Assembly: GCA_964475205.1 (NCBI GenBank) | Contig: CAYYVQ010000002.1 | Coordinates: 9,965-73,964 of the forward strand | DNA length: 64,000 nucleotides | Direction of reading: 5' to 3' | DNA from: an uncultured Victivallales bacterium | GTDB lineage: Bacteria; Verrucomicrobiota; Kiritimatiellia; UBA8416; CAYSRM01 | Part shown: positions 4,855 through 49,693 of the stretch, piece by piece | Position numbering within the stretch: position 1 is the stretch's first letter | Layout: each line of letters starts with the position of its first letter | The notes under the pieces: generated by a model | Seen by the model: only the letters and a program-made list of their open reading frames with translations | The model's database searches: none | What the model was told of the DNA's origin: nothing | Position numbers and translations under genes: made by a program

Positions 4855-4882
4855 ATTGCGCCGACATTGTCCAGCCTGCACA

Positions 4883-7872: not shown

Positions 7873-7958
7873 TAAGTATGTATCTCCAAGCAGGCTGAAA
7901 AGTTATTCTTTACTTTTATAACTATACACGAATTTATGCAAGCGTGGCAAATCCTGAA

Positions 7959-22037: not shown

Positions 22038-25000
22038 TCAATCGCCCTGGCTTTCTGTCAGCCTCTGCTCAAGAATCGTTGTATCCTCAGAAGGCGAGAG
22101 AGGCTTTCCTGCAGGATCAACGAGTTTTGCAGTAACAAAGATCAACAGATTCCTTTTTTCGCTTCGATCATACTTGCTTCTGAAAAGACGGCCTATCACA
22201 GGAATATCGCCGAGCACGGGAACCTTGTCGTCAACGGTTTGCCTGTCCTCGGTAATCATGCCACCCATTACAACGGTGGCTCCGTTGTATATGGACAGCC
22301 GGGTCGCAACCGTTCTGGTATGGAAGAACGGCTGTTCCATATTCAAGACAACTTCGTTGCCCGCGCTGTCAATAAAGCTGCTTCCGTAGTTGCGCCACGT
22401 CGGCTCGGTAACTACCTCCGGGGTCATAGTCAGGTCAATCATCTGACCGTCGTCGCTTACTTCGGGAACGACACCGAGTATGACGCCGACCTCGCGGGTC
22501 TCAAAAGCGCTGGGTTCCACAATTCCCCCGATAATCACCTCAACATCTTCGTCGCCAGCGGTCACAGGGGTTACAGTGAAGTCCGTGGGGTAGATATATT
22601 CGGTAACAACCTTGATCTCAGCGTCATGTCCGGCCTGCGTGGTCACCTTCGGCGCGGAAAGCATGTCCGCAAAACCGCGCTGCTCCATGGCATGGAGAAT
22701 AAACTCCAATTCCGGATTGGTGAGCACACCGGCCACCCTCAACAGGCTGTCGGAAACCGACGCGTTGTCGAGCCCTTCGCGCACGAACCTGTTTCCCTGC
22801 GTAAAACCGCGTCCGCTGCCAACAGGCGTCTGGTCATTTGCCCGGACTACGATTCTCTCCTGGCTGGAAGGTAACATGCTTGATCCGCTGCCCGGGTCGG
22901 TCGCAACTTCCCAGTCATCCGTAAGCAGCCACTCGAAGCCAAGAGAACTGAGATCGCCTCTTCGAACCTCCACGAATCTTGCTTCAATCTCGATCTGGTA
23001 TGGAACCACGTTGATTACAGAGAGAATCTGTTCGAGCACGGCAAGGTTCTCGGCGGTATTGGCCACTATGAGCTTTCCAATCGACCCCACATATTTGATG
23101 GAAGAGCCCTCCGGCCAGTCAACGCCCATTTCTCTGAAACCATCTTTCCAGCCTCCTTCTTCCTCTGGCTGATCGTCAGCTCCGCCGTCAAAGCCGCCAA
23201 AACCACCCATGCCCCCGGCGTCGCGTCTTGTACCGCCGCCAACAAGCTCGCCCTTGATTCTGGCTATCTTTTGCTGCGCACTGGGAAGAACGCTGTACCA
23301 TCTGACTATAATATCGCCCCTTGGCTTATCGGAAGGAACCAGCTTGACTATGCTCTCCTCAACCTCGACCCTGAGGTCGGCGGCATCAGCAACAAGTTTC
23401 AATGACCGCCACAACGAAATGTAGCGCGCGCTGAACGTTATAAGTTCAATATCTTCGCCGGCGCCCTCTTCAGTCTCGGTATCAGGCTCCCCCCAGAGAC
23501 CGCCGCCTGCCTCCGCAGGCTCCTCTTCTTCCCTTGGGCCGCCTCGCCCTGCGCCAAGCTGCAGAATGATGTTCACTCCCTTTCGTTCGTCATCGCTCTT
23601 GTCAAATTCAATACTGGCGTCAGTCAGAAAATCGACCACGTCATAGATGTTGGCCTGCCTGAAGGTGATTTCCGGAATTTCGATGTTTTGCATCTTCTCA
23701 ATCAGTTTTGTTCTTGCAGAAACCCTCATCTCCGGCTCCGGCCGTGTGGTCGTTTCACCATCCTGGACTCCTGCCGGACTGACTTCGGCATAGTCCCTGG
23801 GGTTCCATGTCTCGACAAGACTGGCGATCATACTATCCCGGGTGGTTTCCCTTTCCATTACCGCCCTGTCTTCCCGTTCGCGCGCAACTTTTGCCAGCAA
23901 CCGAATTGACTCGGTATTGTCCGGATGGTTTCGAAGAATCTTCTCAAACTCGTATTGGGCCTTGTCATACTCTCCTGCGGCGAGGTATCGCTTGCCGACC
24001 CTTAACGACTTTTGCACATCTGCTTCCTTCTGCCGGAACTCCCTGGAATCAATATAGTCTGCTGGTCGCGACACGTCTATTTTTTGCGGTTCTTCGGCAA
24101 TAAGTCGCTTCAGTGTGCTCACAAGCCTTGCGGCCTTTTGGTGGCCAAGGTTTGCAGCCTTCTGTGCCCTGGCACGGGCTTTTTCATATTCCCTTTGCTC
24201 TCTCAGCAAAAGGGCTTCCTGGTAATAACAGTTTCTCAAGCCGTCCCGCGCCCTCTTCCGGACCCAGTCTGTTTCGGGCCGCCGCGGTATCCTTTTATCC
24301 AGGGCTGCGCTGAACAGTCTCACTGCCTTTTCAAAATTGTTCCTCTCCAGGGCAGCCTCGCCTTCAAGCATGGTTTCCCTGGCGTATTGCTCCAGCGCCA
24401 CGCGCCTGAGCTCTTCCTCTGTCATAACATTGCTGAGTTCGGGTGAAAGTTCAGGTTCTGCCCTGGAAACTTCTTCCTCTGCGGTAACCTGTTCTGCCGC
24501 TTGCACCCTGACATGTTCCTGCGCCGCCTGCCTAACCGGCGAGTCGTCTTCCTGTTCTGCTTCCTGAAGAATTTCATTCTCTATAGAGGCGGCAGCCTCG
24601 TCCACCATCCGGGCAGTCTCTGCCATCCGCTCGTCGCCAGCTTCAGTTGCAGCAGCATCCTGCATCTCGCCGGGTGTTTCGTCTTCAGCGGCTTCTTCCG
24701 AAGCCGCAGACTCTTCGGCCCCCTCTTCGGTCTCACCCAGCAAAGCTTCCAACCCCATATCTTCATCGCCGGCATCGGCCTCTTCATCGCCTTCTGTGTC
24801 GCCGGTTTCTTCATCATCGTCATCACTGTCTTCTGCTTCTGCAGGCTGGGTTTCAACGCCTTCATCGGCTGCGCCCTGATCACCGTCATCTTCATCTTCA
24901 TCTTCATCTTCTCCCTCGGCGGTTTCGTCCTGGCCTTCATCGAAACCCAGGAGGTCTTCCAGCGACGCCTCCCCACCGGCCGTTGCGCCCCCATCGTCAT

Positions 25001-25085
25001 CCTGGGCTGAAGATAGGTAGATCCCCAAAAAAAGCGTAATTGTAAGGGCGCAAAACAGCGCTGTGCCATATTTCCTTAATGTCAT
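22038..25085 (-). CDS. pilQ: secretin (PilQ/GspD family) with long acidic and TPR-like N-terminal region
   Basis: The C-terminal secretin domain is ...VATRLSIYNGATVVMGGMITEDRQTVDDKVPVLGDIPVIGRLFRSKYDRSEKRNLLIFVTAKLV. There is a signal peptide and a ~150-aa D/E-rich low-complexity tract after it. Length is 1015 aa. Confidence 0.85.
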   Translation of the reverse strand: MTLRKYGTALFCALTITLFLGIYLSSAQDDDGGATAGGEASLEDLLGFDEGQDETAEGEDEDEDEDDGDQGAADEGVETQPAEAEDSDDDDEETGDTEGDEEADAGDEDMGLEALLGETEEGAEESAASEEAAEDETPGEMQDAAATEAGDERMAETARMVDEAAASIENEILQEAEQEDDSPVRQAAQEHVRVQAAEQVTAEEEVSRAEPELSPELSNVMTEEELRRVALEQYARETMLEGEAALERNNFEKAVRLFSAALDKRIPRRPETDWVRKRARDGLRNCYYQEALLLREQREYEKARARAQKAANLGHQKAARLVSTLKRLIAEEPQKIDVSRPADYIDSREFRQKEADVQKSLRVGKRYLAAGEYDKAQYEFEKILRNHPDNTESIRLLAKVAREREDRAVMERETTRDSMIASLVETWNPRDYAEVSPAGVQDGETTTRPEPEMRVSARTKLIEKMQNIEIPEITFRQANIYDVVDFLTDASIEFDKSDDERKGVNIILQLGAGRGGPREEEEPAEAGGGLWGEPDTETEEGAGEDIELITFSARYISLWRSLKLVADAADLRVEVEESIVKLVPSDKPRGDIIVRWYSVLPSAQQKIARIKGELVGGGTRRDAGGMGGFGGFDGGADDQPEEEGGWKDGFREMGVDWPEGSSIKYVGSIGKLIVANTAENLAVLEQILSVINVVPYQIEIEARFVEVRRGDLSSLGFEWLLTDDWEVATDPGSGSSMLPSSQERIVVRANDQTPVGSGRGFTQGNRFVREGLDNASVSDSLLRVAGVLTNPELEFILHAMEQRGFADMLSAPKVTTQAGHDAEIKVVTEYIYPTDFTVTPVTAGDEDVEVIIGGIVEPSAFETREVGVILGVVPEVSDDGQMIDLTMTPEVVTEPTWRNYGSSFIDSAGNEVVLNMEQPFFHTRTVATRLSIYNGATVVMGGMITEDRQTVDDKVPVLGDIPVIGRLFRSKYDRSEKRNLLIFVTAKLVDPAGKPLSPSEDTTILEQRLTESQGD

Positions 25086-25196
25086 TTTATTTGTCCCCCA
25101 GAATTTGGAATTCCAATATCCACAATACTACATGTTCCGTTTAATCTGAACCAGCAAAGCCAATCCCTCATGCTTGCGGGTCCGGTTGCGCATCCC

Positions 25197-26264
25197 TCAG
25201 CGGGCAGCCATTCCGACTTTGATTCTATCCCCGGTTGGAAGCTTGGTAATTAAAACTTTTTTCTCGTCCGTGTCAATATCTATTACTTTATATTCTATTC
25301 CCTTGAGTGCAAACTGGTCGCCTTCCTTGACACGAAACTCTTTGTCTTCCCGGTGAAAGTTCAAAATCGCCGAATATTTTCTGAATATCCGTTCCCGATC
25401 CTTAACGAGTGTCACATCTTCACCATTTTTCGATAGTGTAATCTCGGAGACATCCTTTTTAACCTCCTGGCCAAGGGACTTTTTGAAAACCATATTGGTC
25501 TTGGCCTTATAGTCCGACACAACAAAAACCTCTTCCTCGCCGCCAAATCTGACTGTGATCTTATCGCCAAGTTTGACAAAGTAGGTCTGATCCAAAGTCG
25601 CTGAATTAATCCCAAACTGGAGCGAACCGTCCGGCATACGTGCCCTGCTGAAGAACTCAAGAGGAAACCTTTCGGCATCAAACCTGACAAGCCGCAAATC
25701 CTTTTCAGGCGGAGGAAAATCTTCCGGATCATTCGGATCCGTCCCTGCCTCGAACTCCTCGAGATTGCTGTAGCCGTCTCCGTCAGCGTCGGCCGCAGCA
25801 TCCGAAGGATCATTGGGATCCAGACCATGCTCCCGTTCCCACTCATCTTTCATGCCGTCCTTGTCCCAGTCTTTGCGTTCACCCTTTGGTTTGGGCTGCA
25901 CATGGCCACAGAAATCGCACACCCGGGCGTCAAACGGGATCGGCATCCTGCAGTCCACGCACCAGACACGCCGCTCGGGAACAGTAAGCGCATTTGTCCA
26001 TGCCTCATAATTCAAAGTGTCGGGCTGCTCCAGCATATTGACCGCCGCGCGATAAGGCCCGACATCAATCTTTGAAGCATACTCATGAGTGGGTCTGAGC
26101 GTTTCAAGCTCCCTCTCCAGTCTCTGTCGCATGGACTTGGCGCCGCCCACAAGCATTACCAGATACAGAAGAGAGCCAAGAAGCAGAACTAAAATCAGTC
26201 CCGCGATAAGGCGGTCGTAATGAGTCCTGACCCCTCGAATAATTCTAGACGTATTAAGCTTCAA
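25197..26264 (-). CDS. membrane-anchored protein with zinc-ribbon and TSP3-like Ca-binding motif (occupies PilP position)
   Basis: An N-terminal TM helix is followed by CVDCRMP...CDFCGH (C4 zinc ribbon) and DADGDGYSNLEEFEAGTDPNDPED. Translational overlap with neighbours on both sides indicates operon membership. Confidence 0.5.
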   Translation of the reverse strand: MKLNTSRIIRGVRTHYDRLIAGLILVLLLGSLLYLVMLVGGAKSMRQRLERELETLRPTHEYASKIDVGPYRAAVNMLEQPDTLNYEAWTNALTVPERRVWCVDCRMPIPFDARVCDFCGHVQPKPKGERKDWDKDGMKDEWEREHGLDPNDPSDAAADADGDGYSNLEEFEAGTDPNDPEDFPPPEKDLRLVRFDAERFPLEFFSRARMPDGSLQFGINSATLDQTYFVKLGDKITVRFGGEEEVFVVSDYKAKTNMVFKKSLGQEVKKDVSEITLSKNGEDVTLVKDRERIFRKYSAILNFHREDKEFRVKEGDQFALKGIEYKVIDIDTDEKKVLITKLPTGDRIKVGMAAR

Positions 26265-27171
26265 TATCTGTTACCTCTGCAAATTTATAGACATCCAGTT
26301 CCAGGCGGATGCTCATTGATTTTTCGAGTTGCAGACCGCTGACCAGCCTGTCCTCCCTCAAGGGCGGCTCGCCCTTGTCTTCGCCGGCATTCTTGCCCGC
26401 CGCTGCGATCTCCGCTGGATGTTTAACATCGCCTTTCTGCTTTTCCACGGAAAGGAAAACGACAACAGCAAAAAGATCATGGTCAGTTAGAGCATTGAGA
26501 GTCTTAAGCAATTCTTCCTCTTTCGCCTCAAAAGACAAAACAAAACGATATTTGCCGTAAAGACTGCCTTCCGGCACAAGTCCAGCGTCCGGGTTCCTCA
26601 GCTTAGCTGCACCGCGCCCGCGTGATCTACCTCTTCCCGCGCCTGCTGATTCAAATACTTCCCTTTCTATCTTGCCGACAGTTTTGACGCCGGCCCGGCT
26701 CAAAATCGAGGCAAGCTGCTCAATAATGGCAAGCTGTTCGGTCAATCGGGGGACCTCTGCGGGACGCGGCGTCCTCATATCTTCGGCAAGATACCTCTCA
26801 AATCCGATTGAGATGCTCTTGTTGCGTGAGAACATATCCACGATCTCTTGGTGTTTGTTCTGCAGATTCAGAATAAACACAGACGGACTTCTTTCATCGC
26901 CGGTTTCAATCTGCCGTTCCCGCAACGCAGCAAAAGTTCTTTCAAACCATTCCCTGGCGACAACAACATTCTCGCGCTCAATTTCCACATTTTCCGAAGA
27001 TGGAAAAGGTTTCTTCTCATAGTAGTTGTGAAGCTGTGTCTTCTTATTATTGACCCGGGCTTCTTCTCTCCTGAATTCGGTTATGCCGCGAAAAAGCAGA
27101 ATGGCCGAAACAATAAATAGAACCGCAAGCACGGCTGCTATAGCGAGAAAAAATATTTTCTTCCGGGTCAT
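26254..27171 (-). CDS. PilO-like bitopic membrane protein (TM + coiled coil)
   Basis: The N-terminal TM is FLAIAAVLAVLFIVSAILLF, followed by a coiled-coil region. Its operon position is between the pilM/N fusion and the secretin. The assignment is by architecture only. Confidence 0.45.
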   Translation of the reverse strand: MTRKKIFFLAIAAVLAVLFIVSAILLFRGITEFRREEARVNNKKTQLHNYYEKKPFPSSENVEIERENVVVAREWFERTFAALRERQIETGDERSPSVFILNLQNKHQEIVDMFSRNKSISIGFERYLAEDMRTPRPAEVPRLTEQLAIIEQLASILSRAGVKTVGKIEREVFESAGAGRGRSRGRGAAKLRNPDAGLVPEGSLYGKYRFVLSFEAKEEELLKTLNALTDHDLFAVVVFLSVEKQKGDVKHPAEIAAAGKNAGEDKGEPPLREDRLVSGLQLEKSMSIRLELDVYKFAEVTDIEA

Positions 27172-27181
27172 ATCTGGTTTC

Positions 27182-28834
27182 TCACCTTATCTGTATGCGC
27201 TCGGCAAGCTCCGCTTCAAGAGTAAATTCCTTGACTCCCGGCACTTTTGCAAGCGGCATCTTTGTAATACGTACATTGTCGCTGAAAACTTCGTGCGTTT
27301 TCAGTTGATCCCTGTAGATTTCCATGGCAGGCACCCCCGAGCCTTCGGAAACCAGTTCAATCATATCCTGAAAACCGGCGGCTTCGATCGTAATGCCTGT
27401 TATCTCTTTATTATTGCCTGTTGTCACAGGGGCAATCCTGCGAATCCACATTCCCTTGAATATTGAGTCCTGAACGGCCGCAATTATATCGAGCCACCGG
27501 GTCTTCTCCGAAATCAAGGAGGTTAAATTCCCTATCTCGCCTTCAATCTGACTTCGCTCTTCCAGTACCCTGTTCAGTTTTTCATGCGTTTCTTCCAGGC
27601 CTCCGATCTTGTTGTCTACAGTTTCGGCCAGCTTTGTCAGCATCTTCTGTGTCTCATGAAAGTATACCCACCAGCAGAGCATGATCAGAACAACTCCCAC
27701 CGCGGAAAGAATAAAAAACGGCTGCCGTCTCCTCATGGTCTTTTTTGCGACGAGTTCGGGAGGCATCAGGTTGATTTCAACAGGGCAGCTCAGAGCCCCG
27801 CGAAGAGCAAGTCCCGTGACTTCGCCCAGCACATGCATGTCGCCCTGCACCCTTTCAGAAGATAACGCTTCATTTACCGCAACCCTCTCAAACGGGTTGA
27901 TAAAAGCCACTTCAGCGTCCAGCTTCTCCCTGAAAAACGTCTCCAGGTGCGGAATAATCGAACTGCCGCCGGCAAGCAAAACCAGGTCCGGGGTCGAACC
28001 CCGCTGCTGGCTGCGGTAGAAGTTAATCGATCTGTTCACCTCGGCATGCAGACGGGTAACAACATTTCTTACAATTTTTGATACCTTTTCGCCAACTTCA
28101 TTGTCCGGTCCGGAATAAACGCCTCCAAAAGCAACAAAGCCGTGTTCCATTTTCAGATCTTCGGCTTCCGAATAGGAAACTTCAAATTCCTTCTCAATTT
28201 CACGAGTAAGCGTATTTCCCGCCACGGGAATGCTCCTGCTGAAAATACGGCTGCCTTCTAAAAAAATCAGGTTGGAAGATTTTGCCCCTATATCAAGAAG
28301 CATTGTGCAGCCCTGCAAGTCGGGGTTGTTGTAGCGAACCGCGTTATAAAGCGCCATGGGAGCCACATCAACTACTTCCGGCTCCATGCCGATTGCAACA
28401 AGGCTGTCTGTTATCTTCCTGACGCCTTCATTTTTGACGGCGACCAGCATAACGTTCTGTTCGCCTTCTTCGCCCTCGATAAGCTGATAGTCCCAGACGA
28501 CCTCTTCTATAGGGAAAGGCACGTTCTGTTCGGCCTCGTAGCGCACAATCTGCAGAACTTTATCGCTGGAAACGGGGGGCAGCTTGACAAAGCGAGGAAA
28601 AACCGCCTGCCCGGATATACTTATGAAGGTTCTGCCCTCACGTATACCCTGCTCCTTCATCACCCTTCTAAGGGTCTTCCTGATATGCGTAGCGGCGTCT
28701 TCCGTCTCAGAAACTTCAGCCTCGTAATACCCGATCCCGTAGTTCAGCAGTTCCGGCCCATCCGGGTCAAACGCTGCAACTACAAGTTTGCTGGCGCCGA
28801 TATCAACGGCAATGATGTTTTTCTTTCCGAACAT
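27182..28834 (-). CDS. pilM: type IV pilus assembly protein PilM (actin-like ATPase fold) fused to a PilN-like TM/coiled-coil domain
   Basis: The N-terminus IIAVDIGASKLVVAAF is followed by MLLDIGAKSSNLIFLE and LAGGSSIIPHLETF, the actin/FtsA/PilM fold. After ~aa 360 there is a single TM (FFILSAVGVVLIMLCWWVYF) plus coiled coil, as in PilN. The start is placed at MFGKK. The ORF-track start at 28870 is also possible. Confidence 0.75.
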   Translation of the reverse strand: MFGKKNIIAVDIGASKLVVAAFDPDGPELLNYGIGYYEAEVSETEDAATHIRKTLRRVMKEQGIREGRTFISISGQAVFPRFVKLPPVSSDKVLQIVRYEAEQNVPFPIEEVVWDYQLIEGEEGEQNVMLVAVKNEGVRKITDSLVAIGMEPEVVDVAPMALYNAVRYNNPDLQGCTMLLDIGAKSSNLIFLEGSRIFSRSIPVAGNTLTREIEKEFEVSYSEAEDLKMEHGFVAFGGVYSGPDNEVGEKVSKIVRNVVTRLHAEVNRSINFYRSQQRGSTPDLVLLAGGSSIIPHLETFFREKLDAEVAFINPFERVAVNEALSSERVQGDMHVLGEVTGLALRGALSCPVEINLMPPELVAKKTMRRRQPFFILSAVGVVLIMLCWWVYFHETQKMLTKLAETVDNKIGGLEETHEKLNRVLEERSQIEGEIGNLTSLISEKTRWLDIIAAVQDSIFKGMWIRRIAPVTTGNNKEITGITIEAAGFQDMIELVSEGSGVPAMEIYRDQLKTHEVFSDNVRITKMPLAKVPGVKEFTLEAELAERIQIR

Positions 28835-28876
28835 ATCCTGACACAACAGCCGAGACGGCAAACGCCGCACAGCAAC

Positions 28877-29518
28877 CTATTTCCTGATGTATTCGTAATC
28901 CTGCATGTTAATGTATTTGAATGGCGAACTGGCCCTGTCCATCAGATACCCGTCTCTTTCAGTCACTACATCGCTGTTCAGAACCCTTTTGTTCTCCCAC
29001 CAGTCCTCCGGAAGATCCCTGTCCTGTCTATCTGAGACATAAGCAATAAGGGTTCCCTCGAATCTTATTTCAACGGCAATGGCAACCAGTTGACCAAACC
29101 GCAACAGCGCATGCGGCCTGAGATATGCCGTGCTTATGTGTTCGCGCCCCTCCTGGATATCGCCATACGTGACATTTTCTTTATAAAGACTGTAAGCGGG
29201 CCGTCCGTCAACCTCGCCCCTGCTCATTGCGTAATACTGAAAAGTAAGCGAATCAATCCATTCGGGAGCCGTGTCGTAGGTCGTCTTGATCTCAACCCAT
29301 TCACGGGGACGTTTAACGCTGCGTCGCACATCGGCATCATAGCGCGGGGTTTCTATTAAAGCCCTGCGGCTCAAACCTTCCAGCGCCCTTATCTTCAGTA
29401 TCCCCGGATTATCACCGGTTTCCGCGCCCGGATAAACAGGCCTGCCCTGTCCAAAAGACCTGAACGTTAAGCCCGAAAAAAAAGCCAGAACAGTCAATAT
29501 GTATAGGATACGTTTCAT
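28877..29518 (-). CDS. secreted hypothetical protein
   Basis: A signal peptide MKRILYILTVLAFFSGLTFRSFGQG is present and no recognisable domain. It sits upstream in the same strand run as pilM. Confidence 0.5.
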   Translation of the reverse strand: MKRILYILTVLAFFSGLTFRSFGQGRPVYPGAETGDNPGILKIRALEGLSRRALIETPRYDADVRRSVKRPREWVEIKTTYDTAPEWIDSLTFQYYAMSRGEVDGRPAYSLYKENVTYGDIQEGREHISTAYLRPHALLRFGQLVAIAVEIRFEGTLIAYVSDRQDRDLPEDWWENKRVLNSDVVTERDGYLMDRASSPFKYINMQDYEYIRK

Positions 29519-29640
29519 AGCAAGCAGTTCCCTCCTAACCGTGGGGTTGAACTATACACTCCAGTTAATATAAAAATCAAATGAAAAAATCAGTCTTCTC
29601 CATTCAACCACGCATTAAGCTGATTTTACGGGTTACAGCC

Positions 29641-30450
29641 TCACCAGTTGCCTGAGCATGCATCCGTTGTTTCGTCCCATGTGATCTGTTCAACATGGCC
29701 GTCCATAAAAACCGCATTTGCCTTGCCGTTGTGATACGTGCCCACGGACTCCACGGGATATTCCCCGTCGCTGCTTTTCTGTCCTACCAGGCGACCGTCA
29801 TAAGACCTTCTATGTCTATCGCCCGAGTCATATTCCATAATATTCCGCTTAGCTATAGTGTTGCCCTTGTAAATATTGGTTATTCCCGCATCGGCAAACA
29901 GCAGTCTCCTGCTTGCCTGCACATCCCTTATATCTTTCCCGCCGGCATCCTGGCTCATAACATAACTTCTGACAATGGGATTATTGTCATTGATCGGGTT
30001 CCCCTCCGCATCTTTAAACACAACCCTTTTAAATTCAGGACACACATATACTTTGAGACTCTCGCCCGTATATTCCCACAGGGTTCCATTGGTAACAGAA
30101 AACACACCTTTTTCTCCCCACCACTTGGCCCCATCGTGCCTGATCTCGCTGCTGCTGTTACTTTTGTCAAAATCCGTCCAGTCTACCCAACCCCACGCAT
30201 CCTGATACCAATTGCGGGGTTTGACGCTTTTGGGTGGTCTTTTCCCAACGCTTTTTGACGGCGGCAGGTTGCCGCTATGGTCAAACGCATAGTTCATGGC
30301 AGCAACGTGGAGCTGTTTAAGATTGTTTTTGCACTGAATATCTCTGGCTCTAATGCGCATTTTGCCCAGCACTGGAAAAATCATGCCGACAAGAACGCCC
30401 AGTATAATCATGACGATAAGGAGCTCCAGCAGCGTGAAGCCCTTCTTCAT
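29641..30450 (-). CDS. DUF1559-type prepilin-like protein (N-terminal cleavage/methylation domain)
   Basis: KGFTLLELLIVMIILGVLVGMIFP is a class III signal plus hydrophobic helix. The C-terminus HNGKANAVFMDGHV is the H-x9-DG motif typical of DUF1559. The start is taken at MKKGF. Confidence 0.75.
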   Translation of the reverse strand: MKKGFTLLELLIVMIILGVLVGMIFPVLGKMRIRARDIQCKNNLKQLHVAAMNYAFDHSGNLPPSKSVGKRPPKSVKPRNWYQDAWGWVDWTDFDKSNSSSEIRHDGAKWWGEKGVFSVTNGTLWEYTGESLKVYVCPEFKRVVFKDAEGNPINDNNPIVRSYVMSQDAGGKDIRDVQASRRLLFADAGITNIYKGNTIAKRNIMEYDSGDRHRRSYDGRLVGQKSSDGEYPVESVGTYHNGKANAVFMDGHVEQITWDETTDACSGNW

Positions 30451-30661
30451 TCCAGGCTTCCCCTGCCCCGATCCGTTAAAACGTATGAATTTCATCCACC
30501 GCCTCCCTTTGAGAAAACCTTATCGCAATCCCGCAGAAGTGTCACAACAGGCTGCGCGCAAATCATTAATCTGCGTCTAATACATCTATACTTATAACAT
30601 CCCGCAGAATAATAGACAACTAAAAACTGTTCAATCCCCGAACCCTTATCCCGATCTTCAT

Positions 30662-30838
30662 CCCGCATATCTCATGGAATTTCGTAGCGAGAGCGTGGAG
30701 TGTGCTTCTGCGGGGGTGCAAATTGGTAATACTCCGGAGCAGCCGTTGTAGACATACTGCAATCTGAGGTTTTGCCAATTCGTGCCCTCGCAGTGGCGCT
30801 CTCCGCACTCGCAGCAGGAATTTTGTGAGATATGCGGG
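30662..30838. mobile_element. 177-bp MITE-like element with 13-bp perfect terminal inverted repeats (CCCGCATATCTCA family)
   Basis: cccgcatatctca at 30662-30674 is matched by tgagatatgcggg at 30826-30838. Related copies or fragments lie at 7959-8100, 9011-9025 and 33210-33222. Confidence 0.65.
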
Positions 30839-30874
30839 TTAAAAAACGGCGCCATACGCACTCTTTTTTTGCCG

Positions 30875-31068
30875 GCAATTCTCATTATGGCCATTTTGCC
30901 ACGTCTGGCGTGGCCAGAGTTCCGGCACGATATTGCAGCCACGCGCGAGTAGGCCCGGCTTCACCGAAGCCGAGGCCCCAAGAGCGCTGGGCTTCGGTGA
31001 AGCCCGCGCTACTACGCACATCGTTATACAAATAGGTTTTGGCGGAAAGAGGCCATAATGAGAATTGC
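30875..31068. mobile_element. 194-bp MITE-like element, copy A, 18-bp perfect terminal inverted repeats (GCAATTCTCATTATGGCC), internal palindrome
   Basis: The TIRs are gcaattctcattatggcc and ggccataatgagaattgc. The internal hairpin is cttcaccgaagccgaggccccaagagcgctgggcttcggtgaag. It is near-identical to 48207-48400. Confidence 0.8.
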
Positions 31069-31091
31069 TGTTTTTTGCATTTAAGCGTTGA

Positions 31092-31125
31092 CGGCACGAC
31101 GCAAATACGCTAATTTAACTTATAG
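31092..31125 (+). promoter_or_regulatory. putative sigma70-type promoter for the 648-aa secreted protein gene
   Basis: TTGACG, a 17-bp spacer and TAATTT are present, with RBS aaggaaaggaaaacag before the ATG at 31181. Confidence 0.35.
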
Positions 31126-31180: not shown

Positions 31181-33127
31181 ATGAAAACAATAAAACAAAG
31201 TGTGGCGCGAAAAAGTGTATTGTCAATTGCGGTTCTGGTAAGCGTGGCGATAACATCATACGCAAATACGACAAACCAGATTCCATACGTAAACGATTTT
31301 GAAAACATACCGTCGGGAACGCCCCTGGTGGGCTCCAGTGGCTGGTATGGAGCTTCCAACAGTTATGCGATTGTGACCAACAGAGATTACAGCGCTTTCT
31401 ACTCCAACTATCCGCTGCCGACAAGTACCCACTCAAATGTTATGCTGCTGCAGACCGAAGGCACAGTGGTTACCAACGAACTTGAAGACCTGACCGATGA
31501 TGAAACCAGGAGCAATGTAACCAACGTATGGTTTGACAGCGTGATCCGGTTTACCCACTGGTCCGAAGACTCTTATCCTGATGCTATAACCAGCAATGAC
31601 CAGGTTCAATGCGCGTTCTTCGCAAACACCAATGATCACCTTGTAGTGCATCATTATGACTTACTCGGAGAGTCAAACGCTTTCACCGTGATCACCAACA
31701 GCTCCATCACCAACGGTCAGTACACTCGTATAACAATCAAGTTGGACTACCTCTCAGACGAGGCATTCGGGACCATCGATCACACTTATTATCAGCTCTA
31801 CATTGACGGCAATTTGATGACCAATTCCGCTGCGTACCAGTCGCCCAGTGACACCAGCGGAAAACCGGGGACATGGTTTATGACCGCTAATGATGCGGTT
31901 GCAAAAAAATATTTGACAGGGCTGGAACTCTCCGGGAACGGAGTTTTTGACGATATGATCGTATCGACTAATGACACTATGGGCCCCACGCCTGACAGTT
32001 ACACGATCTTTACGGAAGTCAACGATCCGGCGCGAGGCGACATAAGCCCGGACAGCGACACGGTATTTGAAGGCAACGATAGCGATGACTTTGCCATTAC
32101 GGCAAGCAACGGCTATTACGTAGCCCAGCTTCTGACTAATTCCGTGCAGGTCTTCACTAACAGCGACGTGACCGTCACATCAACAAACTACACCTGGCCG
32201 AGCGTCATGGCCGACGGAACGATAACTGTGAACTTCGCAACATCTCCCACATACCTGGTGACCGGAGTAGTGGCAACGGGTCAGGGCACGATTGATCCGG
32301 CAACCACAAATGTGGTGGCTAACAATGATGCTTCCTTCCAGGTAGACGCAGACACAGGCTGGTACATACAATCCATAACAACGAACGAAACGGCGATACC
32401 CGGCAGCCCGTTCGATGTCAGTCTTACATCAACAAACTATACATGGCAGAACGTTGCGGCCGACGGAACAGTAACTGTGCATTTCGCGGAATGGCACCTT
32501 ATAACCGGCGTGGTCGCGACGGCAGGCGGATCAGTGAACCCGGCAAGTAGAATCGTGGCAGATGGACAGAATGCCTCGTTCGACCTTGTTGCAGACCCTC
32601 ATTACCATGTCGGCCTGCTTGAAACCAACGGCACTGCTACCGGCGGACCATGGGACAACAGCTCCACAAACGAAAATTACGTATGGACCTCCGTTGTAGC
32701 AGACGGGACGTTGACCGTTGCATTTACGGAGAATGTCTGGACCAACGGCACACCGGAAACATGGCTGGCAGACTATTACGGTTCCACAAATTATGAGCAG
32801 GCTGCATCGAGTGATACCGACGGAGACGGGCAGGAAGCATGGGCCGAGCACCTTGCTGGAACAGATCCGACCGACAGCAATTCGGTATTCCGGATAGATG
32901 ATACCTGGCATGAAAACGGGACAAACTACCTTAGGTGGGTCAGTCATCATGTCGGAGATCAGACATCACTGCCGCCGTATAACATCGTATACGCCACCAA
33001 TCTGCTCAACGCGGACTGGAACGTGGTAACAGATACGGTGGAAAGAACAGACGGGACACACACAAATGTCTGGTCCTGGGAAAGCGCAGAAGGAGCTTTC
33101 TACCGGATTGTAGTAACCAACCAGTAA
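31181..33127 (+). CDS. secreted protein with three internal ~80-aa repeats and a conserved C-terminal D-x-D-G-D-G / GTDP module
   Basis: The signal peptide is MKTIKQSVARKSVLSIAVLVSVAITSYA. The repeats are TNYTWPSVMADGTITVNFA..., TNYTWQNVAADGTVTVHFA... and ENYVWTSVVADGTLTVAFT.... The C-terminus is TPETWLADYYGSTNY...DTDGDGQEAWAEHLAGTDPTDSNSVF. Confidence 0.7.
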   Translation: MKTIKQSVARKSVLSIAVLVSVAITSYANTTNQIPYVNDFENIPSGTPLVGSSGWYGASNSYAIVTNRDYSAFYSNYPLPTSTHSNVMLLQTEGTVVTNELEDLTDDETRSNVTNVWFDSVIRFTHWSEDSYPDAITSNDQVQCAFFANTNDHLVVHHYDLLGESNAFTVITNSSITNGQYTRITIKLDYLSDEAFGTIDHTYYQLYIDGNLMTNSAAYQSPSDTSGKPGTWFMTANDAVAKKYLTGLELSGNGVFDDMIVSTNDTMGPTPDSYTIFTEVNDPARGDISPDSDTVFEGNDSDDFAITASNGYYVAQLLTNSVQVFTNSDVTVTSTNYTWPSVMADGTITVNFATSPTYLVTGVVATGQGTIDPATTNVVANNDASFQVDADTGWYIQSITTNETAIPGSPFDVSLTSTNYTWQNVAADGTVTVHFAEWHLITGVVATAGGSVNPASRIVADGQNASFDLVADPHYHVGLLETNGTATGGPWDNSSTNENYVWTSVVADGTLTVAFTENVWTNGTPETWLADYYGSTNYEQAASSDTDGDGQEAWAEHLAGTDPTDSNSVFRIDDTWHENGTNYLRWVSHHVGDQTSLPPYNIVYATNLLNADWNVVTDTVERTDGTHTNVWSWESAEGAFYRIVVTNQ

Positions 33128-39300: not shown

Positions 39301-41646
39301 GTCCTCGGATCGAAGCCGGGAGAGGTATGGCTGAATGAGGTTAACTATGCCAACAATGGTTTTGAAACTACCAACGAATATATTGAGATCGTCGGCAGGG
39401 AGGGAATAGATGTTGACGACTGGGAAGTCGAGCTGGTTACTACTGCAGATATAACTTATGACAGCGCCGTACTCACAAACGGATCTCCTTTTGCCAACAC
39501 AACAAATGGCTTTGGCTTTATTGTCTATGGCGATCCCGGGGTCAACAATGTCGACCTGGTTTTCGAAACGCCTTCAAATCAGAATATTGAGAAAAACAGC
39601 GGCGCAAGACTCGTTAGAGGCATGGGGGCCCATGCAGATAAAATATGCTGGGGCGACCCTGATACTCTGGATACATTGACATCAAATGGCTACCGATATA
39701 TAGGAGAGAAGACTACTATTTACGCCTTCTCTCCGCTATATGCAACGGGAACCGGCATAGAAAAGTCTGATTTTACAGACTGGGACTTCAATACATCCAG
39801 CGGCTCATGGTACTCGCCGGGTAACGAAAACGAATCACAAACTATGATCGCCTATCAATCAACTCAGACTCTTACAGTGGCATCGGCTTTAGGCACGCCT
39901 TCCCCTGCGACAGGAACCAACGCTTATCCGAGGGGAACTACGTTGACCTGCGCCATGACCGACTCGCCCATAAACATCGGCGTCCTTTCCACCCAGTACC
40001 TGTGCACAGGATGGAGCGGCAGCGGCGATATCCCGACTTCAGGCTCCACCACCAACACCGGAGAGATAATGCTGCTTAGTGACTCGTCCATCACCTGGCA
40101 GTGGGTCACCAACGTCTACCTCGACGTGCAGACAAACGGGAACGGCTCGGTCGATAACACGGGCTGGTTCCAGCAGCATTCGGCCGTGACAGTAACGGCT
40201 ACGGCAGCCGAATATAACGCGTTCACCGGATGGACCGGAGACACCAACGGATGCAACATCTCGTCAAATGTCCTTACAATCGATCAGCTCTCGGAACCCC
40301 GGGGTCCGATTACCGCTAATTTCGAGTCCACTGACCGCACTCTCGACGTGACTTCAACCTATGCCGCGACCAACATCGCGCCACCCCCCGGATCACATGT
40401 CTACCATGACAATGATCCCCTTTCTTGCGTGGTGAGTAACCGTGCGATCTACAAGGGATCAATGGCGACACAGTACCTGGTTACCGGCTGGAGCCCCACC
40501 GGAAGTGTGCCTGAGATGCCAGCTATCGGAACAGAGACAAACTTTGTATGGGAATGCGATGCGGGAGTTGAAACATGGAACGGGAATGATGGCGATGACT
40601 GGGTTACAATCCTGGTTGCCGATGGGGACGAAAAAGGGCTTGGGAACTTCACTCGCGACAGTTTCGCCACCAACGGAATATCTGTTGGCGACGATCGAAT
40701 ACTTGACAATACAACAGTTATGGACTTTGGCGGCAATCTTTACTGGGATGCGTCTGTAGATATTCCGACCGGGCTGAGAGTATACACAGTGGTCTTCAAC
40801 AGCGCTGACATATCTACAGCCACCCATTATATCATCCCTACCAATGCGAACACGTTCTTTACTATTGACGGCAATGATTACGACTGCGGTACGGCCCTTG
40901 CAGGCGAATGGACGCCTCTTGTTGCTCCTGAGACAAACAATACCGCCATAAGCACAGGGCCATTCAATATAACATCGGATTCCAGCATAGACTGGCTCTG
41001 GCAGACAAATCATTACCTGGACATTTCAGTGAGCGGCAGCGGCATCGTAGATGTGGCAAGCGCCTGGTTCAAGTCAACCAGCAACGTAACAATAACAGCC
41101 TATCCTGAGTCAGGCTATACGCTTGATTCCTGGACGGGCAACACAAACGGATGCGTAATAAACAATCTGCAGATTGAAGCGCCAATGACTCTTGCCAGGA
41201 ACATCACGGCCTCTTTTGTTCCGGAATCAAATGACAGAACAGATCAAGGAACGCCGTATTCGTGGCTCGATGATTACTACACGTCCAACTACGATTACTG
41301 GGACACTAACGATTCGGACCTTGACGGAATGGCCGCGTGGATGGAATACGTAACCGGAACCGACCCTACAAATGAACAATCAACATTCCAAATACTGGAA
41401 ATAGGCTACGGCGACGGATCAAACTTTTTAAAGTGGTACGCAACCACCAACAGCGGCGTTTACACACCGTTTGGAATCTACAGGACAACCAATATACTTG
41501 AAGGATGGGGTTCGCCATACATCACAAACGTGGGTCCGCGCGATCCCGACGGGACCGGCACAAACACATGGTGGGATACAAATCCTCCGCCGGCCGATGT
41601 CCCGGTATACTATCGCCCGTACGTCATTTGGACCAACAGCCCATAA
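33376..41646 (+). CDS. giant secreted multi-repeat surface protein (2756 aa) with a lamin-tail-like domain, InlB-B-repeat-like modules and a C-terminal D-x-D-x-D-G / GTDP module
   Basis: The signal peptide is MKTVNDKLTLAKASLVALSFVLYASLPLAAQA. At least six modules carry [LI]xSPxxxxG[IV]G.[IV]SF[WY]Y[RK]NW. VWLNEVNYANNGFETTNEYIEIVGREGIDVDDWEVEL is LTD-like. Three YL[CV]TGWS....I.W modules follow. The C-terminus is GTPYSWLDDYYTSNYDYWDTNDSDLDGMAAWMEYVTGTDPTNEQSTF. Confidence 0.8.
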   Translation: MKTVNDKLTLAKASLVALSFVLYASLPLAAQADMYQDFDQWETPQSFGNYEKNGWQLNDGAAYVAEGNTNGLLNDTGANLRSPYSSNGIGRVTWKTRLWSSGSVTYELQASASPDFTNPIPLATYTCDTSSAWQYFTNDLALYDGLYLRWNKNSSSPWLKFDDVHVRLPPSYVNITNVQTHPVSPIVGTNTFISATVEQQAGASNITASLFYRTDAASSFTEISMSSNGVDSYITDTGILTTTPNLTVEYYIKTDFDGRYTSSTQYYPAGGSSDPSSFVVRALSPYTNISVKGADETNMHLVDNNQWKGVLTTNGLLSDPVFYFESGSGTWGDDNQSVSNLPVYGTAQSGSSNITVEGTVTSHLAFAFDDNSQDYSIQQCEYIDFDNWTVGTTGNYGTYTNSEGWVLDAGRINKNSDNEWDRALRGRYAILKHGYTNQFDREIQYLRSPYMDDGVGTISFWYRNWEKDGSPEAGYLVQKSATGAGDWITVSDSYNTNITSAGYLWTQIGIADRNAHYVRIVNTNESNDSWLCLDEVAVSHPGATVGLTDPWRSAASPLLGESVDVSITTTNVGGGATNLECYVWFRHEDSSAFSQITLSRSNSVFYATIPATPEGEVEYYFECTYEGFNAATIFYPEGGADAPSLLTYTNQQSHGNTRYEDFESWSTPDVFDDYTNAAGWVIHQGAVYDNRGLIGDSSESASLTSPELSNGVSSIYFDLANWQSGENIAEIQTSTNGTTFQPIATITNTEVHGAREYYQIQVDDNKVTHIRVLKTDDKGSHLYIDNVVISYPPADVDITDQFYAPGYPMTNDEVTVSCVITSSNARQSAYNLDPEMHYRSEDSQWTSVGMNHSGSNVYTAVIPANTPGTIQYYIECGFDGYYYGPENQSPAFLPDAPAASERPDTFFSYDVRHHHSDYSHLSITGSVETASMTLIGNDYWQGVVAIDQPTNEIQLALNGHNKWLGSSYSSETDTWGATNQIRYEPPIQTEANQAGDSILVRDNFTGTNQVVVRYDLATGTYLIFRAAYQDFNEWNLASTEYFDQSLSESTISSTTNTFDHWPVDSVDPDPEKPDTMIEDMESWTVGAYYDDSGRSDMSANGWYCQAAEIIGDPYGGEDKALRFDPTDEHIYTQGKIWPHRATLTKGLDTFQFKYYWSLSKDNNPAYYNLGSNLDNYQITASITGPETSPRPSYSALARYQDTDNYYEFRLRSRDTDNSDTILELYRHNNGAAERLDATADNNNNLRNRTQNIKFSVCTNNGGRAYIRFESNGEAKLFHDTDTSSVLASPGSFGFLCNGADIRIDNIEVRHQHRQHFDNWLDDPTGWVVTNGYVHSNYDDCRLPGNNDARLTTPYLGYDVGTLSFYYKKYNNDGACEVYVYGSNNASDWTVITNWSTTSSGSYKTLTDGLTGYNYFQIRNETTNSAGLEIDNVVITEDDDFYTNPFDTAASTSDWTDVTGDIWYYDSTNQTYNRPGEVGPPIDFVVQKGYTNESFTYAPTSWIDVATITATNMKYQTANVEFEYWDELFVRIKHDDGQASLVLDDLKLTKWRGTDSYTDTNNWKATGIWVSEHSPEDRCIELWRSKISPDKPQYVRSPLMEGIGSVTFLQKVANGPAEFQIEIASEDAPDTFVPQATVTVTNEDWQTYTYMIQTNDNFYARIRHTTTNRNTVLYIDDMEISDYAERDSRTWEAYNALITPNEDSREFEPYSGYRTAYLNNNPTNGTASGDNFDRDRPYIQSPRMPNGIGEISFWYRNWETDGLPAGTFHIMSSPTDGGTFDEWTQITTVSNLTNTDYRYFSTNHYNADHRYVRVYSETNSGCSRLAIDNLLIGHPLAADFSVTNLTTIPEVPLYSSSVDLSVDLYNFILQPQNIQVRAYYNIGSNNWAQWENWNTNNYIDLDLTSSSPAQRTYQSSGASIPQLPVNTVVQYYLEFTFDGPNSDKTSPKTYAAFSNPDYYDPIDLNDGHSVTNPYYFVLGSKPGEVWLNEVNYANNGFETTNEYIEIVGREGIDVDDWEVELVTTADITYDSAVLTNGSPFANTTNGFGFIVYGDPGVNNVDLVFETPSNQNIEKNSGARLVRGMGAHADKICWGDPDTLDTLTSNGYRYIGEKTTIYAFSPLYATGTGIEKSDFTDWDFNTSSGSWYSPGNENESQTMIAYQSTQTLTVASALGTPSPATGTNAYPRGTTLTCAMTDSPINIGVLSTQYLCTGWSGSGDIPTSGSTTNTGEIMLLSDSSITWQWVTNVYLDVQTNGNGSVDNTGWFQQHSAVTVTATAAEYNAFTGWTGDTNGCNISSNVLTIDQLSEPRGPITANFESTDRTLDVTSTYAATNIAPPPGSHVYHDNDPLSCVVSNRAIYKGSMATQYLVTGWSPTGSVPEMPAIGTETNFVWECDAGVETWNGNDGDDWVTILVADGDEKGLGNFTRDSFATNGISVGDDRILDNTTVMDFGGNLYWDASVDIPTGLRVYTVVFNSADISTATHYIIPTNANTFFTIDGNDYDCGTALAGEWTPLVAPETNNTAISTGPFNITSDSSIDWLWQTNHYLDISVSGSGIVDVASAWFKSTSNVTITAYPESGYTLDSWTGNTNGCVINNLQIEAPMTLARNITASFVPESNDRTDQGTPYSWLDDYYTSNYDYWDTNDSDLDGMAAWMEYVTGTDPTNEQSTFQILEIGYGDGSNFLKWYATTNSGVYTPFGIYRTTNILEGWGSPYITNVGPRDPDGTGTNTWWDTNPPPADVPVYYRPYVIWTNSP

Positions 41647-47437: not shown

Positions 47438-48160
47438 CTACATACTGTCTCTGTGTATATCATTTGCAGCAGGGTTGTCATCATCCTCTGTTTCAGGATC
47501 GCCCTTCGACCATAGCTCATAACTCAGGTAAGGCGGATCAGATTCATATTTTATGACCCGGTCCCACCCATCCAATATAGTGTCTACGTTATTCGTAAAA
47601 GGCTTTCCATCTTTGGTGTAATGCGTGGGGCCTTCCTTTGTGGTAATCACGCCGGTCATAAATTGGCTCCATCTTCCCTTGGCGCGCTTGTCCCGTGAAT
47701 TATCCCCTATCCATGCGCTGTCACTATTGTCCGGATTAACAAGATGAAGCGGATTCATGGTGTCTCTCTTCCTCGTATCCAGGAAGGCTACAAGTCCGTA
47801 CTCGAAGTTCAGCTCCTCGACATTCTCCTCCTCCGTAAAGTAATTATTATTCTCCCAATATGCCATGTAAGCCTCATTGGTATTCTCATACTGGTAGCAG
47901 ATCCGGCAGTCGTCGCCATGAAACGTGCACACACCCGGCTTAACCGGCGGATAAACGCCATACTCGCTTTTAAACTCTTCAAGCGCCCCGGCAACCCTGG
48001 TCAAGACTTCAACTGTTTTAGCCTTTTCCTCGCTCTTACCCGAAAGTCCAGAAAGCCTGAAAACAATTCCAGCCAGAATCGCAATCACCACCATGACAAC
48101 GAGCACTTCAATTAATGTAAAAGAACTGCGCCTCTCAGCTTTCATGCCACTCACCTCCAT
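47438..48160 (-). CDS. GspG-family pseudopilin paralogue (extended C-terminal)
   Basis: SSFTLIEVLVVMVVIAILAGIV...LEEFKSEYGVYP is the prepilin motif. Length is 240 aa. Confidence 0.6.
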   Translation of the reverse strand: MEVSGMKAERRSSFTLIEVLVVMVVIAILAGIVFRLSGLSGKSEEKAKTVEVLTRVAGALEEFKSEYGVYPPVKPGVCTFHGDDCRICYQYENTNEAYMAYWENNNYFTEEENVEELNFEYGLVAFLDTRKRDTMNPLHLVNPDNSDSAWIGDNSRDKRAKGRWSQFMTGVITTKEGPTHYTKDGKPFTNNVDTILDGWDRVIKYESDPPYLSYELWSKGDPETEDDDNPAANDIHRDSM

Positions 48161-48206
48161 GTAAATATTACCACTTATTCACTTTTGTGAAAAGGGAAAA
48201 CACTCA

Positions 48207-48400
48207 GCAATTCTCATTATAGCCATTTTGCCACGTTTGGCGTGGCCAGAGTTCCGGCACGATATTGCAGCCACGCGCGAGTAGGCCCGGCTTCACCGAA
48301 GCCGAGGCCCCAAGAGCGCTGGGCTTCGGTGAAGCCCGCGCTACTACGCACATCGTTATACAAATAGGTTTTGGCGGAAAGAGGCCGTAATGAGAATTGC
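48207..48400. mobile_element. 194-bp MITE-like element, copy B (intergenic between gspF and the first gspG paralogue)
   Basis: It is near-identical to 30875-31068, with a few substitutions inside the TIRs (atagcc versus atggcc, ggccgt versus ggccat). The spurious ORFs 30839-31021 and 48204-48410 encode the same peptide. Confidence 0.8.
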
Positions 48401-48409
48401 TGGAAAACA

Positions 48410-49693
48410 CTACCCCGCCATTGTGCTTACAACGTGAATCAGCGGAACAAACATGGCTATCACAATCGTGCCGACTATTCCAGCCAGCAGCACAATCATT
48501 ATTGGCTCAATAATTGATGTCAGCCCCTCAACGGCAGTGTCAACTTCATCTTCGTAGGTATCGGCAATTTTCAACAGCATTTCCGGCAAAGCGCCTGTTT
48601 CCTCGCCTACATCCACCATGCTGATGACCATCCCGGGGAAAACCCTGGAATGCTCCAGCGGTGTGGACATGTCTTCGCCTTCCTTGACATTGTCATGAAC
48701 AGCCTGTATTGCATCTGACAGTACCCGGTTGCCCGAAGTGTCTCTCACAATGTTCAGCGCCTGCAGGACAGGAACTCCGGAGGTCATCAACGTCCCCAGT
48801 GTGCGCGAAAATCGAGCCACCGCGCTTTTGGTGAAAAGCTGCCCGAACAGGGGCATTTTAAGCTTTATCTTGTCCACAATAAAACGTCCCCTGTCCGTAC
48901 GCGCAAGTATCTTGTATAAAAAGATAAAACCAACTATAAACCCTAGAAACACGTACCACTGCCGCGCAATAAAGTTGCTGATGGCAATTACAACCTCAGT
49001 CAGAATAGGCAGTCCCTCGTCACCCAGCAGATCATTGAATATTTCCTTGAACCTTGGGATGACATAAATCATAAGAAATGTCAGAATGCCTACAGCGGCA
49101 ACAAGAACCACTACGGGGTAAATCATTGCGCTCTTGATCTTGTTCTTGATCCTCTCAGCCTTTTCCATGAATTCGGCAAGCCTGTTAAGCACAACTTCAA
49201 GAACACCGCCGGCTTCTCCGGCCCTGACCATGTTGATAAACAGGTTGTCAAAAATCCTGGGATGCTGCTCCAGCGCCTCGGAAAAAGTGCTGCCGCCTTC
49301 AACCGACTCGCCCATTTCAGTCAGGGCCTTCCTCAAGGCGGAATTCTTTTCCTGCTTGAGAAGAATTCTAATTCCCCTTAACAACGGCAGTCCCGCATCA
49401 ACCAGGGTTGCCAGTTGCCGGGTAAAAATCATAAGCTGCTTGGCCTTCACCCTGGGACCAAGAAAACCCGGCAACTTGATCTCCATCTTCAGGCCTTGCC
49501 CCTGCTGCGCCGCAGCCTGACTCCCTCGACCGGAAGCAGCCTGTTTTCTTCTGCCCCCGATTTCACTTACCTTTGTCGGAAACAACCCCTTCGCGCGGAT
49601 CATGGCCACCGCCTGCGACTGATTATCCGCCTCAAGAACACCCTCGGTCTCATTGCCGCCCGAGTCCATTGCAAAAAACTTGAATCTAGCCAT
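48410..49693 (-). CDS. gspF: type II secretion / type IV pilus platform protein GspF/PilC family
   Basis: The N-terminus FKFFAMDSGGNETEGVLEADNQSQAVAMIRAKGLFP is followed by two T2SSF repeats with three TM segments. Length is 427 aa. Confidence 0.85.
   Translation of the reverse strand: MARFKFFAMDSGGNETEGVLEADNQSQAVAMIRAKGLFPTKVSEIGGRRKQAASGRGSQAAAQQGQGLKMEIKLPGFLGPRVKAKQLMIFTRQLATLVDAGLPLLRGIRILLKQEKNSALRKALTEMGESVEGGSTFSEALEQHPRIFDNLFINMVRAGEAGGVLEVVLNRLAEFMEKAERIKNKIKSAMIYPVVVLVAAVGILTFLMIYVIPRFKEIFNDLLGDEGLPILTEVVIAISNFIARQWYVFLGFIVGFIFLYKILARTDRGRFIVDKIKLKMPLFGQLFTKSAVARFSRTLGTLMTSGVPVLQALNIVRDTSGNRVLSDAIQAVHDNVKEGEDMSTPLEHSRVFPGMVISMVDVGEETGALPEMLLKIADTYEDEVDTAVEGLTSIIEPIMIVLLAGIVGTIVIAMFVPLIHVVSTMAG

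Follow-up and report, generated by a model that had tools for sequence, protein, structure and literature searches.

Two direct copies of a 198-bp MITE-like element, with the ends of an insertion sequence that encodes a Tn5-like transposase, in a Verrucomicrobiota genome

Introduction

Nezha, a non-coding MITE of Anabaena and Nostoc of about 130 to 170 bp, carries terminal inverted repeats (TIRs) identical to those of ISNpu3, and its cognate insertion sequence (IS) was found in another species (PMC3184786). The Correia elements of Neisseria and the ERIC/IRU elements of enterobacteria are listed among the MITE-type repeats in the same work (PMC3184786).

We analyzed a 64-kb stretch of DNA, here referred to as the window, in which a preliminary description had reported two near-identical MITE-like repeats bracketing a 17-kb block of genes. 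The repeated element is closest in kind to the Nezha/ISNpu3-type MITEs and is a textbook bacterial MITE: like Nezha, it is small and non-coding, shares its TIRs with an IS, is flanked by direct repeats, has a very stable predicted hairpin, is represented by filled and empty sites, and has its cognate IS elsewhere. It differs from Nezha in its host, which here belongs to the Verrucomicrobiota, and in its interior, which is unrelated to any other element seen. A direct relationship of the element to Nezha/ISNpu3 may exist and is offered as a lead only. The two repeats very probably represent separate insertions of a non-coding 198-bp MITE bearing the ends of an IS with a Tn5-like transposase, and their position around the 17-kb block is, on the same reading, incidental.

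Results

A repeat search of the window paired positions 30875-31070 with 48207-48402 as direct repeats of 196 nt (98% identity) lying 17332 bp apart. When the two copies were aligned with 100-nt flanks, their near-identity began and ended abruptly, and outside the ends the flanks matched at 7 of 50 positions on the left and 10 of 50 on the right, which is the chance level. The full element measures 198 bp and occupies positions 30873-31070 (copy A, plus strand, 57% GC, termini CG...TG) and 48205-48402 (copy B, plus strand, same orientation, termini CA...TG). We take CA...TG to be the true termini because the target duplications abut them and because 55 of 77 family members, described below, end in CA and TG. 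Over the 198 bp, the aligned copies differ at four positions (98% identity), given here as copy A/copy B: 30874 G/A, 30889 G/A, 30905 C/T, and 31055 A/G. One of these lies in the interior and three in the TIRs, in keeping with the few TIR substitutions noted in the preliminary description, which was also right about the near-identity of the repeats and their common orientation. The length of 194 bp given there is to be replaced by 198 bp. It had also contended that identity running well beyond the TIRs would speak against a MITE, and the flanks show no such extension.

Each copy begins with CAGCAATTCTCATTATGGCC (with CG as the first dinucleotide in copy A) and ends with its inverted complement. 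In copy A, the left TIR (30873-30892, plus strand) reads CGGCAATTCTCATTATGGCC, against the family consensus CAGCAATTCTCATTATGGCC, and the right TIR (31051-31070, minus strand) reads GGCCATAATGAGAATTGCTG on the plus strand. The inverted ends had been described as 18-bp perfect repeats; the ends are indeed inverted, and the TIRs are 20 bp long, with the inner 18 bp perfect in copy A. With up to three mismatches allowed, the window contains four matches to the 18-mer GCAATTCTCATTATGGCC, against 0.12 expected by chance, and these are the four element ends. At the center of copy A lies an imperfect palindrome (30948-31013; counterpart in copy B at 48280-48345). In place of the 13-bp stem proposed earlier, its arms span 27 nt at 85% complementarity and contain a 15-bp perfect core, GGCTTCACCGAAGCC / GGCTTCGGTGAAGCC. 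The palindrome contributes to the predicted hairpin of the whole element, with folding energies of -106 and -108 kcal/mol for the two strands and a z score of about -8.6 relative to shuffled sequence. A fold of this strength follows automatically when TIRs are combined with a palindromic core.

The element has no open reading frame of its own and overlaps no transposase homologue, and with its 198 bp it thus has the size (below about 500 bp) and the non-coding character of a MITE. A search of the whole window against Rfam returned two tRNAs only, with no match at either element, and BLAST of the element found no match in 72,556 plasmids or in all complete Escherichia coli genomes.

Copy A lies in the intergenic region between two divergently oriented genes, a DUF1559/N_methyl gene (29641-30495, minus strand) and a gene for a 648-aa protein without a Pfam family (31181-33127, plus strand), which is followed by a gene for a 2756-aa protein. 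As described earlier, the copy lies upstream of the 648-aa gene, and its end is 110 bp from the ATG. Nine nucleotides to the right of the copy A duplication, a promoter-like site (TTGACG-17 nt-TAATTT; 31088-31116, plus strand) is found, which our consensus scan did not call and which is conserved in the relative GCA_964543205.1 (L143), where the site of insertion is empty. Judged by its letters, it may serve as a promoter. The region is adjoined by a pilus-type cluster (22038-30495, minus strand) that encodes a secretin with TPR repeats, a TSP3-repeat protein, a PilM/FtsA-like protein, and the DUF1559/N_methyl protein. The syntenic neighbors in relatives have precomputed Pfam matches to Amuc_1100 and Amuc_1102, and in the window itself, the 305-aa and 213-aa proteins had no match in a local Pfam search.

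Both genes to the right of copy A contain repeats of their own. Diverged direct repeats of 75 nt with 77% identity occur in the 648-aa gene at 32164-32238 and 32413-32487, and the 2756-aa gene carries diverged internal direct repeats at 39994-41043, which indicate repeated modules in both proteins; the 2756-aa protein also has InlB B-repeat-like (Flg_new_2) matches. Near the start of the window, a 37-nt direct repeat with 97% identity is present at 61-97 and 1563-1599, 1.5 kb apart.

Copy B was located where the preliminary description had put it, between gspF and the first pseudopilin gene and inside the operon, which is on the minus strand. The gspF gene (type II secretion system [T2SS] protein F; 48410-49693, minus strand; Pfam T2SSF, E value of 1e-68) lies upstream of the copy in the operon and ends with the TAG stop codon at 48410-48412, and rpoA and rplQ are found upstream of it. 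The window's GspF belongs to a 90%-identity cluster that includes a protein from a Verrucomicrobiota metagenome-assembled genome (MAG). Downstream of gspF on the minus strand follows a run of N_methyl/T2SSG-like pseudopilin genes. The first of these, with an N_methyl motif (47438-48145, minus strand), probably starts at the ATG at 48145, which is preceded by GGAGG; the longest open reading frame starts at 48160. With the element and one copy of its duplication subtracted, the spacer between gspF and the pseudopilin gene would be about 42 bp.

Target-site duplications, for which the preliminary description had proposed that the flanks be inspected, are present at both copies. Copy B is flanked by GAAAACACT on the left (48196-48204) and on the right (48403-48411), a perfect match at nine of nine positions. 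Because the right-hand GAAAACACT and the gspF stop codon have two bases in common, the coding sequence of gspF is intact. Copy A is flanked by TTTTTTTGC on the left (30864-30872) and by TTTTTTGC on the right (31071-31078); this duplication is imperfect, the right copy lacking one T of a homopolymer, and the element itself begins with CG instead of CA.

The site of copy A is empty in GCA_964543205.1 (L143), which encodes a homologue of the 648-aa protein with 93% identity. Its intergenic region reads GCGCCATGCGCTCTCATTTTTTTGCATTTAAGCGTTGACGG, that is, the two flanks of the window joined through a single TTTTTTTGC, and it therefore constitutes a precise empty site at the position of copy A. In GCA_964440205.1 (L138 and L144; GspF 89% identical), the element is absent from both sites. 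The copy B insertion, together with its private allele, recurs in a second sample (L141 and L142; GCA_048622435.1 and SRR21542050), where the contigs end inside the element, as they do in SRR11308339. Three independent short-read assemblies thus break inside the element, as expected of a repeat. Two further details concern the Logan contigs: the one at copy B (L136 1417-1462) runs exactly 30 nt beyond the private single-nucleotide polymorphism, as expected for k = 31, and the one at copy A (L137 1-29) ends after just 29 nt of the element, although it carries an allele different from that of copy B. This early end hints that the Logan sample contains at least one further copy with the A allele; two copies are seen within the 64-kb window. 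Since each copy has its own, different duplication, copies A and B are independent insertions and are neither a segmental duplication nor a composite transposon.

The same ends bound many other short elements. A metagenome scan with the TIR yielded at least 120 loci. A scan of species-representative genomes, run with a TIR pattern that required NNTTT after the TIR, yielded 11 loci, in MAGs of Verrucomicrobiota, Lentisphaerae, and Kiritimatiellae and in three other MAGs; this pattern cannot match the ends of the IS described below, and the scan is therefore uninformative as to which genomes carry the IS. At least 74 short elements with these ends, the two of the window included, fall into at least 22 clusters with mutually unrelated interiors. 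At their termini they share the consensus CAGCAATTCTCATTATGGCC, and among the matches listed conservation breaks down beyond position 20; since one end served as the search pattern, this consensus carries an ascertainment bias. Also among the matches listed, 77 TIR pairs on public contigs could be scored, 55 of which end in CA...TG. The 9-mers adjacent to these 77 pairs matched at all nine positions in 26 cases and at eight of nine in 14, and a shifted control never exceeded seven of nine. On inspection, the perfect 9-bp duplications revealed no obvious target consensus.

The interior of the 198-bp element had no relative among 140 loci, its interior class being represented only by the two copies of the window; the element at L075 also measures 198 bp and has an unrelated interior. 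At L027, a TIR pair spanning 1320 bp (260-1579) was considered as a second IS and rejected, as it encloses a group II intron maturase-like open reading frame and no transposase; the pair may have arisen when an intron fragment invaded a MITE, or its two ends may be paired by chance. No transposase was found beside the solo end at L011, and at L005, where none appeared in the list of open reading frames, tblastn detected a short transposase remnant. The TIR string was not found in the literature searched.

An intact IS of 1425 bp with ends CAGCAATTCTCATTTTGGCG...GGCCATAATGAGAATTGCTG occurs twice in GCA_964268745.1 (L132 and L133), its copies flanked by the perfect 9-bp duplications ATACAGAGA and GCATGGGGG. 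It encodes a 445-aa DDE transposase, and its 20-bp ends are the same as those of the window element. A transposase with matching TIRs, which the preliminary description had asked for, thus exists in that genome, and no homologue of it lies within the 64-kb window. As the MITE shares only the 20-bp ends with this IS, it is not a simple deletion derivative of it. Other IS examples with these ends were found at L090, L088, and L041, all in genomes other than that of the window. The TIR pair at L090 (292-1709) encloses a decayed gene, reconstruction of which recovers more than 4790 proteins; the members of this transposase family are typically 445 aa long and are mostly encoded on contigs of about 1.4 to 1.8 kb. 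Directly downstream of the intact IS at L132, positions 4516-5766 contain a frameshifted homologue of the same transposase superfamily with 34% identity, and the locus would then be a nest of related IS elements.

Residues D132, D221/D222, and E345 (in RWKIENE) are invariant across transposase homologues down to 42% identity. The AlphaFold model of the transposase (mean pLDDT of 72.7 and pTM of 0.73, a moderate confidence) was compared with the PDB by Foldseek, and the five best matches were all Tn5 transposase (E value of 1e-9, probability of 1.00, TM scores of 0.45 to 0.48). The modeled protein thus matches an RNase-H-like DDE core with a predicted Tn5-type fold. A profile search of PDB sequences with the transposase returned nothing useful. 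Against Pfam DDE_Tnp_1, the proteins scored 13 to 25 bits (cut-off, 23), and only P0046 passed; against DDE_Tnp_1_assoc, they scored 13 to 18.5 bits (cut-off, 32.3). The NCBIfam IS4 models gave marginal scores of at most 22 bits (cut-offs, 115 to 152), and the pieces of the pseudogenized L090 transposase gave one marginal IS4 match when searched against NCBIfam and Pfam.

DDE_Tnp_1_assoc is typical of ISAs1-type proteins, and the N-terminal region of the transposase weakly resembles it. Membership in the ISAs1 family was rejected, in view of the scores below the cut-off and of the fact that no NCBIfam ISAs1 model matched at E values up to 0.1; the likeness to ISAs1 is one of architecture only. 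The homologue of Nostoc punctiforme (54% identity; left end, CAGCAATTCTCATCATG) is annotated by PGAP as 'ISNCY family transposase', a name also attached to the homologues of Acaryochloris and Gloeothece. ISNCY is the ISfinder bin for elements 'not classified yet' and has no single defining feature. Beside a homologue with only 43% identity (L041), the right end is identical at 18 of 18 positions.

Discussion

Because the repeats combine TIRs, 9-bp duplications, a precise empty site, and an autonomous IS that has matching TIRs and encodes a DDE transposase, their earlier identification as MITE-like is borne out and strongly supported. The transposition chemistry we infer from what is established for Tn5-type DDE transposases, and this genome would carry, or would once have carried, such a transposase. 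The 20-bp TIRs, CAGCAATTCTCATTATGGCC, would be the ends recognized by the 445-aa DDE transposase of the 1425-bp IS. Supplied in trans, this enzyme would bind and synapse both ends and excise the element, which would then be inserted at a 9-bp staggered cut, and repair would leave the 9-bp direct duplications. Copies A and B would have arrived by separate events of this kind, copy B landing within the T2SS pseudopilin operon, at the stop codon of gspF, and copy A close to the promoter region of the 648-aa gene, on its upstream side.

Tn5 makes 9-bp target duplications, and ISMae2 likewise makes a 9-bp duplication. The autonomous element resembles Tn5/IS50 and the IS4-type elements in its best fold match, its DDE triad, the beta-rich insertion between the second D and the E, its 9-bp target duplication, and its single transposase gene between short TIRs. 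It differs from IS4-type elements in that its sequence similarity to them is marginal and in that its ends begin with CAG, whereas those of IS50 and IS10 begin with CTG.

Several other origins of the two repeats were weighed. The view that they form the two arms of a composite transposon or mobile island of 17.5 kb, which would carry the giant-protein and pseudopilin genes as a unit, draws on the presence of two elements of the same family around a block of genes and on the fact that the left TIR of copy A and the right TIR of copy B would in principle be a valid substrate pair for the transposase. However, the outer flanks differ (TTTTTTTGC versus GAAAACACT), each copy has its own duplication, and the block splits an operon, with gspF outside and the pseudopilin genes inside. 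Furthermore, the GC content of the block equals that of its surroundings, and relatives without the elements keep the gene order on both sides, with the DUF1559 gene, the homologue of the 648-aa gene, and the giant gene on one side and gspF followed by a pseudopilin gene on the other. We therefore consider a composite unit very improbable, and, in view of the same duplications, GC content, and synteny, the significance that the preliminary description gave to the bracketing of the block is not supported.

A local segmental duplication or gene conversion of intergenic sequence, without any transposition, would account for the finding of just two copies of this interior class, both within one 64-kb window, but it would leave unexplained why the boundaries coincide exactly with inverted-repeat termini, why a 9-bp direct duplication accompanies each copy, why a relative has a precise empty site, and why the same termini bound an IS with a transposase and at least 74 short elements; we regard it as extremely improbable. 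Equally little speaks for REP/BIME palindromes spread by a RAYT (an IS200/IS605-like tyrosine transposase) or for a family of structured small RNAs, and the chance of either appears minute. The elements are indeed intergenic, GC-rich, palindromic, and strongly folding, as both of these would be. REPs, though, are 20 to 40 nt long and produce no target duplication, whereas the unit here is 198 bp long, carries 20-bp TIRs, and is flanked by a 9-bp duplication. The lack of an Rfam match argues against a small RNA, and conserved ends with unrelated interiors are the reverse of what a functional RNA would lead one to expect. Separate insertions of a MITE thus remain our preferred explanation.

A further proposal would add to the preferred explanation without replacing it: MITEs by origin, the two copies might have been co-opted where they landed, the hairpin of copy B altering the processing, stability, or polarity of the read-through gspF-pseudopilin mRNA and copy A supplying or displacing promoter elements of the 648-aa gene. 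Both strands of the element fold far better than shuffled sequence, copy B lies inside an operon and is retained with an identical allele in each of two independent samples, copy A is 9 nt away from a conserved promoter-like site, and the G-to-A change at 48221 in copy B creates a minus-strand TATAAT that points at the pseudopilin gene. Against this stand the automatic nature of the fold, the lack of an Rfam match, and the consensus promoter and terminator scans around both copies, which detected no promoter or intrinsic terminator inside either element. Moreover, no -35 partner accompanies the new TATAAT, a promoter-like site (48191-48164) is already present in the native spacer downstream of copy B, and close relatives do without the element at either site. 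On balance, co-option seems unlikely. As for the private change itself, it turns the TIR of copy B at 48216-48225 (minus strand) into GGCTATAATG, a perfect TATAAT, which the promoter scan did not call.

Any regulatory effect of either copy is thus a hypothesis that leans on the analogy with Correia and ERIC elements. Correia and ERIC/IRU elements are about 100 to 200 bp long and often lie within operons, where they are co-transcribed and, through their long hairpins, can influence how the mRNA is processed and how stable it is. They are the best analogy for a possible role of copy B in the predicted gspF-pseudopilin transcript. The element has no sequence relationship to them, and its duplication is 9 bp long, whereas Correia elements duplicate TA.

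In its widest form, the argument would hold that the CAGCAATTCTCATTATGGCC end marks a very large undescribed MITE/IS superfamily. One Tn5-like 'ISNCY' clade would keep near-invariant ends across 42 to 54% identity and at least 22 interior classes in Verrucomicrobiota, Lentisphaerae, Kiritimatiellae, and others, and the copy at the gspF stop codon would, in addition, have been co-opted for control of the pseudopilins in a pilus/T2SS region with Amuc_1100 and Amuc_1102 neighbors in relatives. Taken as a whole, this picture strikes us as improbable.

The preferred reading of separate MITE insertions has consequences for the annotation of this region and of others. It guards against over-interpreting the 17-kb block, which is neither mobile nor set apart by special bracketing. 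Short-read assemblies are interrupted by the element exactly at gspF and the 648-aa gene, which leaves the MAGs of this lineage fragmented, and the element's filled and empty sites provide a clean marker for strain typing. The 20-bp end is now linked to a Tn5-like transposase family of more than 4790 members that is largely missed by curated models, a link that would allow systematic annotation of IS elements and MITEs in Verrucomicrobiota and related MAGs.

The preliminary description had also raised recombination between the copies. As direct repeats, they would not support the inversion that it envisaged, and the deletion holds in principle: RecA could delete the 17 kb between them, and the two copies are thus a possible substrate for a loss of all pseudopilin genes. 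Such a deletion, if it occurs, would leave the junction TTTTTTTGC-one element-GAAAACACTACCCCGCC.

Copy A is neighbored, only about 30 bp to its left, by another TIR-bounded repeat (30661-30840), which is about 180 bp long, unrelated to it, and has the ends CCCGCATATCTCA / TGAGATATGCGGG; two different MITE-like elements thus stand side by side in this intergenic region. In L143, about 100 bp of other sequence takes the place of this second repeat. A shorter relative of this repeat is present in the window at 7958-8095, and a homologous element, flanked by TTAA, directly follows the gspF stop codon in a relative (L139 1097-1300). Inside the long gspF-pseudopilin spacer of that relative, the stretch tgccataacgtgagttgctg (L139 1445-1466) looks like a decayed right end from the CAGCAATTCTC family, which hints that the spacer between gspF and the pseudopilin genes is a recurrent landing site.
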